In this document: one piece after another, positions 10,016-11,650 of the stretch
Numbering within the stretch: position 1 is the first letter of the stretch
Layout: each line of letters opens with the position of its first letter
Source of the DNA: a virus
Lineage: Duplodnaviria; Heunggongvirae; Uroviricota; Caudoviricetes
Reading direction: 5' to 3' (one strand)
IMG/VR virus record: IMGVR_UViG_2531839474_000007
Coordinates: 1-24,423 of that record
Length of the DNA stretch: 24,423 nt
Notes under the pieces: model-generated
Database searches by the model: none
Told to the model about the DNA's origin: nothing
Seen by the model: only the letters and a program-made list of their open reading frames with translations
Position numbers and translations under genes: made by a program

Positions 10016-10078
10016 TAAAAAAAGTGAACCGCCCCGGGAATCCTGGAGACTAAACTCCCTGAGAAAGAGGTAAACAGG

Positions 10079-10405
10079 ATGACTAAAAATACACGTTTTT
10101 CCCCCGAGGTCCGTCAACGGGCAGTTCGTATGGTTCTGGAAAGTCAGGGCGAATATGACTCACAATGGGCGGCAATTTGTTCCATTGCCCCAAAGATTGG
10201 CTGTACACCAGAGACTCTGCGTGTGTGGGTTCGTCAGCATGAGCGGGATACCGGGAGTGGTGATGGTGGACTCACCACCGCTGAACGTCAGCGTCTGAAA
10301 GAGCTGGAACGTGAAAATCGTGAACTGCGCCGCAGTAACGATATCCTTCGCCAGGCTTCCGCTTATTTTGCGAAGGCGGAGTTCGACCGCCTCTGGAAAA
10401 AATAA
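10079..10405 (+). CDS. IS629 OrfA
   Basis: 108 aa, identical to copy 1 OrfA. Confidence 0.9.
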
Positions 10406-11292
10406 TGCCGCTGCTGGATAAGCTGCGTGAGCAGTACGGGGTCGGACCGGTATGCAGTGAACTGCATATTGCCCCGTCAACGTATTACCACTGTCAGCAA
10501 CAGCGACATCATCCTGATAAACGCAGTGCCCGTGCTCAGCGCGATGACTGGCTGAAGAGAGAGATACAGCGCGTATACGATGAAAATCATCAGGTGTACG
10601 GTGTGCGTAAAGTCTGGCGCCAGTTGTTACGCGAAGGTATCAGGGTGGCCAGATGTACAGTGGCGCGCCTCATGGCGGTTATGGGACTTGCCGGTGTTCT
10701 CCGGGGTAAAAAGGTCCGTACTACCGTCAGCCGGAAAGCCGTTTCCGCAGGCGACCGCGTAAACCGTCAGTTCGTGGCAGAACGTCCTGACCAGCTGTGG
10801 GTGGCTGATTTTACTTACGTCAGCACATGGCAGGGCTTCGTCTATGTGGCGTTCATCATTGATGTGTTTGCCGGATGTATCGTGGGGTGGCGAGTCTCAT
10901 CGTCTATGGAAACGACATTCGTGCTGGATGCACTGGAGCAGGCGTTGTGGGCCCGTCGGCCGTCCGGCACAGTCCATCACAGTGATAAAGGTTCTCAGTA
11001 TGTATCACTGGCCTATACGGAGCGACTAAAAGAAGCAAAACTGCTGGCATCAACAGGGAGTACAGGTGACTCGTATGACAACGCGATGGCGGAGAGCATC
11101 AATGGTCTTTACAAAGCGGAGGTAATACACCGTAAGAGCTGGAAAAACCGTGCAGAAGTGGAACTGGCCACACTCACGTGGGTGGACTGGTATAACAATC
11201 GACGATTGCTGGGAAGGCTGGGTCATATCCCTCCGGCAGAAGCAGAAAAAGCTTATTATGCTTCCATCAGAAACGATGATCTGGCAGCCTGA
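10405..11292 (+). CDS. IS629 OrfB transposase
   Basis: 295 aa, identical to copy 1 OrfB; -1 frame relative to orfA with an A6 slippery tract at the overlap. Confidence 0.9.
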   Translation: MPLLDKLREQYGVGPVCSELHIAPSTYYHCQQQRHHPDKRSARAQRDDWLKREIQRVYDENHQVYGVRKVWRQLLREGIRVARCTVARLMAVMGLAGVLRGKKVRTTVSRKAVSAGDRVNRQFVAERPDQLWVADFTYVSTWQGFVYVAFIIDVFAGCIVGWRVSSSMETTFVLDALEQALWARRPSGTVHHSDKGSQYVSLAYTERLKEAKLLASTGSTGDSYDNAMAESINGLYKAEVIHRKSWKNRAEVELATLTWVDWYNNRRLLGRLGHIPPAEAEKAYYASIRNDDLAA

Positions 11293-11336
11293 GTTCACAG
11301 ATAAAACACTCTCCAGGAAAACCGGGGCGGTTCAAA

Positions 11337-11650
11337 GAGCCAGCGACTGACCTGAAAGAAGACGCTGGCTAAAAGGCCTTATATGTTTGTAGAGACTTAT
11401 TTTTCACAGACAGCAATGATGCCTGTCAATATATTATCAATATGCGGATTGTTTCAGTTACAGATGCTTTATTAAGGAAAAAAACAGCCAGCACTGACTT
11501 TCGGTGGAGAGGTGCTGGCTCAGAAGGATAGTTGGATTTCACATGATACTTATGCCTGGCGGTATATTTTCTGACAGACAGTGACGGGTGTTGTCAAGAT
11601 ATTGTGTCATTTATAACCTGAATCAGGGGAGGCCGGAATGTTATCTGGCA
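11337..11650 (+). repeat. two diverged tandem units of about 155 bp, each with a 5' hairpin (AGCCAGCG...CGCTGGCT; AGCCAGCA...TGCTGGCT) and an ACAGACAG...TGTCAA(T/G)ATATT box
   Basis: Hairpin 1 at 11338..11370, hairpin 2 at 11486..11520, with one compensatory base-pair change (G-C to A-T); box 1 near 11401..11435, box 2 near 11566..11605. Confidence 0.5.

Follow-up and report, generated by a model that had tools for sequence, protein, structure and literature searches.

A complete IS629 element between nanS-p and the holin gene of a lambdoid prophage, a probably tolerated insertion in the late transcription unit

Organization of the late region

The window analysed here, 24,423 nt in length, is a contig lying between N-gaps in a draft scaffold (GCA_000261145.1, JH659573.1). 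It belongs to an E. coli prophage and contains a late operon of lambdoid type, with the late antiterminator gene Q at its head and a lysis cassette and morphogenesis genes arranged downstream in the same orientation (Table 1). A RusA gene accompanies Q on the + strand. The Q product is annotated as Q in related prophages and belongs to the PF06323 family; a sequence search of the PDB with this protein returned no characterised Q relative, leaving it without a tie to lambda Q, Q21 or Q82. A candidate late promoter pR', recognized by consensus match only, overlaps the end of Q, and some 45-70 nt past it a hairpin of the form AAAACCCGC-CCACAA-GCGGGTTTTTTTG, followed by a T-run, is a candidate tR' terminator. 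This putative pR'-tR' arrangement, predicted at the level of consensus, has the layout expected of a lambdoid late promoter.

Three tRNA genes occupy the + strand side of the interval between Q and nanS-p, and a DUF3927 gene and a match to the STnc100 sRNA are also found between the Q region and nanS-p. The nanS-p-type esterase gene is intact and is followed, beyond a non-coding spacer, by genes for a holin of the phage-21 class II type, an endolysin and an Rz spanin. Past Rz, the + strand continues with genes for a PerC homologue, Nu1, gpA, W, portal, an S49 peptidase (C-like), D, E, FI, FII, Z and U (lambda-like). The late genes in the window have the lengths seen in relatives, with the exception of the S49 peptidase gene, which has lost one repeat.

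An amber/frameshifted TerB-like gene had been proposed as corroborating evidence that the prophage is impaired. Both lesions are present in the TerB-family pseudogene located between Q and nanS-p, but the same pseudogene is found base for base in the IS-free relatives L001 and L011, and it is annotated with an "internal stop" in relatives. The TerB-like gene is moreover an accessory gene rather than a lytic function, and its decay lends no weight to a defect in lysis or virion production.

Table 1. Features of the late region and of the two IS629 copies in the window.
Feature	Position	Strand	Description
IS629 copy 1	1339-2648	-	1,310 bp; 100% identical to copy 2, inverted; own GGG duplication
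Late antiterminator gene Q	5935-6624	+	229 aa; PF06323, E 9.5e-93
Candidate late promoter pR'	6608-6636	+	TTGCAA-17-TATATT
Candidate tR' terminator	6688-6717	+	-12.8 kcal/mol
TerB-family pseudogene	7258-7686	+	out-of-frame start; in-frame TAG at 7390-7392
nanS-p (SASA carbohydrate esterase)	8165-10015	+	616 aa; DUF1737+SASA+DUF6645; annotated in relatives
Target-site duplication, left	10022-10024		AAG; single AAG in empty site of 7 relatives
IS629 copy 2 (IS629 group, IS3 family), complete	10025-11334	+	1,310 bp; same sense as late transcription
IRL, copy 2	10025-10049	+	25 nt; 88% complementary to IRR
orfA, copy 2	10079-10405	+	108 aa; HTH_Tnp_1 (Pfam); intact
ALIL pseudoknot, copy 2	10360-10476	+	IS3-family programmed -1 frameshift signal; Rfam RF01497, 120.9 bits, E 2.6e-31
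orfB, copy 2	10405-11292	+	295 aa; HTH_21 + rve DDE integrase core; intact; -1 frame relative to orfA, overlap at 10405
IRR, copy 2	11310-11334	+	pairs with IRL
Target-site duplication, right	11335-11337		AAG; single AAG in empty site of 7 relatives
Hairpin stem of leftward terminator-like site	11338-11370	-	separated from its T-run by copy 2
Native intrinsic terminators, late unit	near 6711, 8072, 11651, 11722, 13327	+	-12.8, -15.4, -12.6, -18.0, -21.1 kcal/mol
Two native terminators between copy 2 and holin gene	11632-11729	+	-12.6, -18.0 kcal/mol; T-rich tails
Holin gene S	11776-11982	+	68 aa; PF04971, E 1.9e-32
Endolysin gene R (lysozyme)	12670-13203	+	177 aa; PF00959
Rz spanin ORF	13482-14006	+	PF03245, E 1.2e-48

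Boundaries and identity of the inserted element

A complete IS3-family element of the IS629 group, hereafter copy 2, lies inside the late unit in sense orientation, between Q with its putative pR'-tR' and the S, R, Rz and head genes. Gene order and strand agree in this respect with the original prediction, which had placed the element in the Q-dependent late unit upstream of these genes, 9 bp after the nanS-p stop in an A-rich tract. The distance was correctly called: exactly 9 nt, TAAAAAAAG, separate the nanS-p stop codon (TAA, 10013-10015) from the first base of the element, and the interval originally assigned to the insertion (10016-11337) comprises the spacer, the element proper and the duplication. 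The A-rich tract is also present, and corresponds to the opposite-strand T-run of the hairpin at 11338-11370.

Copy 2 begins with TGAACC and ends with GGTTCA, in keeping with the 5'-TG...CA-3' termini and the ~1.3 kb length of IS3-family elements, and its ends form 25-bp imperfect inverted repeats, TGAACCGCCCCGGGAATCCTGGAGA and TCTCCAGGAAAACCGGGGCGGTTCA. The unoccupied site, GCATAATAAAAAAAG followed directly by AGCCAGCG, contains one AAG; seven related loci have it, phage H-19B and O157 Sakai Sp4 among them. Since AAG flanks the element at either end and occurs only once in the empty sites, copy 2 is a simple insertion of textbook form. Its duplication of 3 bp is within the 3-4 bp reported for IS629 (PMC3271280). 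The insertion interrupted no coding sequence, its target being the ~450 bp of non-coding DNA that separate nanS-p from the holin gene.

Assignment of copy 2 to IS629, judged on phage and prophage copies, rests on nucleotide identities of about 95% or more to elements bearing that name. Phage JLK-2012 (O55:H7) carries an annotated IS629 that shares 99.6% identity with copy 2; for the element in phage Stx2_131990 the figure is 100%, and for the IS629 of O157 Sakai type it is ~95.5% (95.6% and 94.8% for the fragments of the Sp4 copy). The last value fits the existence of published IS629 types that differ from one another by 55-60 bp (PMC3271280). Together with the intact ends and the presence of an identical second copy in the window, the intact reading frames of copy 2 suggest recent transposition activity.

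Distribution of the insertion among related prophages

The 4,000-bp backbone around the insertion, once freed of the IS, is 100% identical in strain 382634_2f, and 640 of the 5,426 complete E. coli genomes searched contain at least 80% of it. Searches with 64-nt queries spanning each IS end located the copy 2 junctions in none of these 5,426 complete RefSeq genomes, and a search with 160-nt junction queries returned mostly the O157 Sp4 insertion, which occupies a different site (+122). Likewise, a search of the phage collection yielded no phage with an IS at the copy 2 site; phages PA45 and Stx2_EH0787 carry IS629 elsewhere in the lysis region. As its junctions occur in none of the genomes searched and the IS-free backbone is identical in strain 382634_2f, copy 2 is, on these comparisons, a derived event private to one lineage. 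IS629 has a known preference for the prophages of EHEC- and EPEC-type E. coli, which it diversifies; copy 2 is thus a known kind of event at a new site.

The closest complete genome, ECO2947, is 99.8-100% identical to the window outside IS elements. Its prophage is located at tRNA-Ser/mtfA, spans ~53.7 kb including two IS elements of its own, and carries the genes nleB2, nleC, nleH1 and nleF; the tail region of the source prophage falls in a scaffold gap. Decay is evident in the sister prophages, with a frameshift in the integrase gene of ECO2947 and frameshifts in the portal and capsid genes of PE164, and for this reason copy 2 may reside in an already defective prophage.

Three sister prophages with backbones 98.8-99.9% identical (ECO2947, PE164/E105 and Z1323HEC0108) have acquired independent intergenic insertions. 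An IS629-like element lies 107 nt after the nanS-p stop in PE164/E105, in reverse orientation, and another lies 158 nt after it in Z1323HEC0108, in forward orientation, while ECO2947 carries ISEc8 just upstream of S and an IS629-like element between R and Rz. In other lineages, IS copies are found within nanS-p, within R or after Rz. The nanS-p-to-Rz region is therefore a recurrent IS landing zone, although none of the sister insertions shares the +9 position of copy 2. Several independent insertions into this region of a single backbone bear on the question of selection for weakened lysis in resident prophages, which could account for their recurrence; the fact that the spacer insertions of the sister prophages all spare coding sequence fits equally well with tolerance in a functional lysis cassette.

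Terminators and transcript features around copy 2

Strong native intrinsic terminators are predicted along the late unit on both sides of copy 2, and two of them stand between the element and the holin gene (Table 1). Given these two terminators, expression of S requires a termination-resistant polymerase coming from pR', whether or not the IS is present. Within copy 2 itself, the best terminator candidates reach only -7.7 and -6.5 kcal/mol and have poor U tracts. The sense RNA of the element is also not rut-like, with G exceeding C in 10 of 13 full 100-nt windows. No promoter-like site was seen on the + strand at the right end of copy 2, and the possibility that an outward IS promoter drives S was rejected on this ground and because two strong terminators would intervene before S. 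An Rfam E-value scan of the spacer region (11300-11800) produced no match, and a 133-148-nt periodicity noted in the spacer was too weak to be convincing as a repeat.

Comparison with IS629 insertions in other late operons

The Stx2 phage Sp5 (VT2-Sakai) of O157:H7 Sakai, like the prophage studied here, carries a full 1,310-bp IS629 in its Q-dependent late operon, where it follows the tRNAs, the toxin position and nanS-p and precedes S-R-Rz and the structural genes. The two insertions differ in several respects. The Sp5 element is antisense to late transcription and reaches into the 3' end annotated for the nanS-p homologue ECs_1207, whereas copy 2 is in sense orientation and lies 9 nt past the stop; it is also of a different IS629 type (~95.5% identical to copy 2), and the 144-aa Q of Sp5 belongs to a different family. 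Packaged Sp5 nevertheless reaches at least 10^10 copies per ml, and the phage can be passed to K-12 and onward (PMC2669165). Comparable observations come from PST1 Stx2a phages with one to three IS629 copies, among them copies in the late operon in both orientations. From these phages, which include carriers of the Sp5-position element, DNase-protected phage DNA was recovered after ciprofloxacin at 117-573x coverage (PMC4587872). Phage PA45, in which a sense IS629 lies inside R and upstream of the head genes, was among these DNase-protected yields (PMC4587872).

In Sakai Sp4, an IS629 remnant occupies the same spacer in the same orientation as copy 2, 122 nt past an identical nanS-p 3' end. 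The Sp4 element is internally deleted, however; the adjacent lysis cassette (holin, endolysin, Rz, pchA) lies in inverted orientation, and nu1 is disrupted by ISEc8. Sp4 is a genuinely rearranged, defective prophage, whereas the lysis cassette in the window is colinear and intact.

[quoted passage not shown] Where an insertion interrupts a late transcript antiterminated by lambda Q, the modified polymerase would accordingly be expected to ignore its polar signals; applying this to the PF06323-type Q of the window is an extrapolation.

Effect of copy 2 on late expression

Taken together, these comparisons indicate that copy 2 is probably a tolerated insertion through which the late polymerase reads. 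In this account, an intact IS629-group element would have transposed recently into the nanS-p-to-holin spacer of an effector-type lambdoid prophage, generating the AAG duplication. Upon induction, Q would engage RNA polymerase at the late promoter that closely follows its own gene, and the Q-modified polymerase would most likely cross the 1.3-kb IS, given that stronger native terminators stand on both sides of it, and would then express S, R, Rz and the morphogenesis genes. Copy 2 would in that case most likely be a passenger that affects lysis and particle formation little or not at all. We infer read-through by a Q-modified polymerase, and the neutral phenotype that should follow from it, from several observations: the polymerase must already pass native terminators stronger than the weak candidates of the IS, Q-modified polymerase is a documented suppressor of polarity, and Sp5 and the PST1 phages still make particles with IS629 in the late operon. 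Weighing against tolerance are the antisense orientation and different site of the Sp5 precedent, and the consensus-level definition of pR', qut and tR' in the window.

The main competing explanation is that copy 2 acts as a polar insertion that lowers or delays transcripts to S, R, Rz and the head genes and impairs lysis and virion yield, for instance because Rho acts on orfB RNA that is for the most part untranslated, or because the Q modification is lost. Polarity is a classical property of IS elements, and the dependence of orfB on frameshifting at the ALIL signal would leave ~0.9 kb of RNA mostly free of ribosomes; most of the orfB RNA is probably untranslated, a situation that would invite Rho-dependent polarity in an ordinary operon. 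Polarity suppression by the Q of the window is, in addition, extrapolated by analogy from lambda Q and others, because this PF06323 protein has no match to solved Q structures, and the repeated nanS-p-to-Rz insertions in ECO2947, PE164, Z1323HEC0108 and Sakai Sp4 would fit the retention of lysis-attenuating elements. The same spacer insertions in near-identical relatives nevertheless all avoid coding sequence, and in the sense RNA of copy 2 G mostly exceeds C, unlike in a rut site. The late polymerase must already traverse stronger native terminators, lambda Q is known to suppress polarity, and phages with IS629 in the late operon produce particles. A polar effect thus appears unlikely, and the impaired lysis and virion production originally proposed for this prophage is a weak inference that runs counter to the best precedents. 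Finding an IS in the way of a late transcript antiterminated by Q does not by itself justify scoring a prophage as defective in lysis or virion production. A fully active Stx2 phage is documented to carry an equivalent insertion ahead of its lysis genes, and the significance of copy 2 is mostly limited to annotation.

Other explanations turn on the second IS629 copy in the window, which breaks a hypothetical gene encoding a 231-aa product in relatives and lies 7,376 bp from copy 2, so that the two elements bracket the segment from hok/sok to nanS-p. The pair could act jointly, either by recombination that inverts the 7,376-bp block, which holds hok/sok, Q, pR', the tRNAs and nanS-p, and cuts the lysis and head genes off from the late promoter, or by moving as a composite transposon. 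Inverted arms of 1,310 bp with 100% identity would be suited to such behaviour, and in Sakai Sp4 an IS629 remnant in the same spacer adjoins an inverted lysis cassette. Each copy is, however, flanked by a matching duplication of its own (GGG and AAG, respectively), and the interval between them is colinear with IS-free relatives, by which the sequenced state reflects neither inversion nor joint transposition and the copies do not behave as a composite unit; an inversion of the interval was rejected on the same evidence. The perfect identity of the copies may itself be an assembly consensus, as the source is a gapped draft scaffold. We consider joint action of the pair highly improbable, and regard as very unlikely a broader scenario in which the pair serves as a recombinational off-switch through a 7.4-kb Q/pR'/nanS-p inversion, read-through from pR' couples transposase production to induction such that the IS hops into replicating phage genomes, and the spacer landings reflect selection for weakened lysis. 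The draft status of the scaffold also raises the question of whether the scaffolder put copy 2 in the wrong place or merely filled it in: N-runs delimit the window, copies 1 and 2 agree at every base, and the junctions are missing from the 5,426 complete genomes. Against such an artefact, a precise AAG duplication and full-length ends are the signature of real transposition and would be unexpected from misassembly, and the same contig is recorded for three samples. The junctions and duplications look genuine on this evidence, and misassembly is scarcely credible as an explanation for copy 2.

Predicted side effects of the insertion

With copy 2 a tolerated insertion in sense orientation, the late transcript would carry sense transposase mRNA after induction. 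In the predicted fold of this read-through RNA, AUCCUG in the left inverted repeat (10040-10045) pairs with CAGGAU (10075-10080), so that the initial two bases of the orfA AUG are covered. These bases have a predicted unpaired probability of 0.03-0.3 in read-through RNA, versus ~0.4-0.97 in transcripts starting inside the IS. The start codon may therefore be partly masked by the left inverted repeat when transcription enters from outside, resembling a general protection of IS elements against impinging transcription; the masking structure is modest, with a whole-region z-score of -1.06.

Two further side effects are likely. Copy 2 would have lengthened the genome by 1.3 kb, or 2.6 kb together with copy 1. 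The insertion also separated the stem of a leftward terminator-like hairpin at the 3' end of nanS-p from its T-run: in IS-free relatives the stem is followed by CTTTTTTTAT on the - strand, and the site is intact in the IS-free locus L011 (- strand, 13515-13501), so that loss of the T-run in the window is likely a side effect of the landing of copy 2.

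Insertion sequences and the lysis region

Near-identical prophage backbones carry differing IS insertions (IS629-like, ISEc8) in the interval between nanS-p and Rz, as seen in the related prophage loci L001 (strain ECO2947), L002 (strain PE164), L006 and L009 (Sp4 of O157 Sakai), and in these four loci every insertion site is intergenic. In Sakai Sp4, an inverted lysis cassette adjoins an IS remnant.

The two IS629 copies of the window (table below) bracket 7,376 bp encompassing hok/sok, DUF968, RusA, Q, the tRNAs, the TerB pseudogene and nanS-p. Recombination between the copies could invert this late-promoter block. 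Each copy is flanked by its own duplication, GGG at copy 1 and AAG at copy 2, and therefore no inversion of the bracketed block has occurred. The perfect identity of the copies may stem from assembly consensus. The hypothetical gene split by copy 1, which adjoins a SAM-dependent methyltransferase gene, is an uninterrupted 231-aa ORF (WP_000892866.1) in relatives.

In IS-free relatives, the nanS-p stop codon directly borders a terminator-like site that points leftward and consists of a hairpin followed by CTTTTTTTAT on the minus strand. In the window, IS629 copy 2 has parted the stem of this site from its T-run. The spacer between nanS-p and the holin gene (11335-11780) displays a weak periodicity of 133-148 nt, with a pair of similar hairpins of the AGCCAGC type as well as ATGCCTG..TATAT motifs, and contains two opposing promoter-like sites; a search of this spacer against Rfam returned no matches.

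Features of the window
Feature	Position	Strand	Remarks
IS629 copies	1339-2648; 10025-11334	-; +	inverted pair, 100% mutual identity
Hypothetical gene broken by IS629 copy 1	782-1338; 2649-2803	-	
sok antitoxin RNA	3365-3539	+	match, 114 bits
hok/gef-type toxin ORF	3477-3689		hokD in relatives
STnc100 sRNA	7855-8027	+	Rfam match, 100.8 bits
Strong intrinsic terminator	8052-8078		within late unit, 3' of STnc100 match
Hairpin; A-run	11338-11370; 10016-10023	-	terminator-like site in IS-free relatives; the A-run reads as its T-run on this strand
Promoter-like site, nanS-p-holin spacer	11407-11435	+	
Promoter-like site, nanS-p-holin spacer	11457-11428	-	
PerC/Pch-family transcriptional activator gene	14472-14786	+	PF06069, E 3.8e-44
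S49 peptidase gene	19673-21028		deletion site about 20648-20667

Head protease deletion

Compared with all relatives examined, the S49 peptidase gene has lost 150 bp in frame (451 vs. 501 aa), corresponding to one of three tandem repeats of roughly 50 aa each in the C-terminal, scaffold-like part of this lambda gpC-type head protease. The 451-aa variant is also present in two further public samples, and the deletion could weigh more heavily on virion production than the IS.

Contig context and accessory elements

In draft assembly GCA_000261145.1, the window corresponds to one contig of scaffold JH659573.1, flanked at either end (1 and 24423) by N runs; its right end truncates the tail-tube gene, and the remaining tail region falls in a scaffold gap. 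In the sister prophage of ECO2947, the T3SS effector genes nleB2, nleC, nleH1 and nleF are located past the tail fibres. Within the window, the sok/hok pair sits between IS629 copy 1 and the DUF968 gene, and the STnc100 match lies directly 5' of nanS-p. The PerC/Pch-family gene, directly past Rz in the late region, sits where Sakai Sp4 has pchA.
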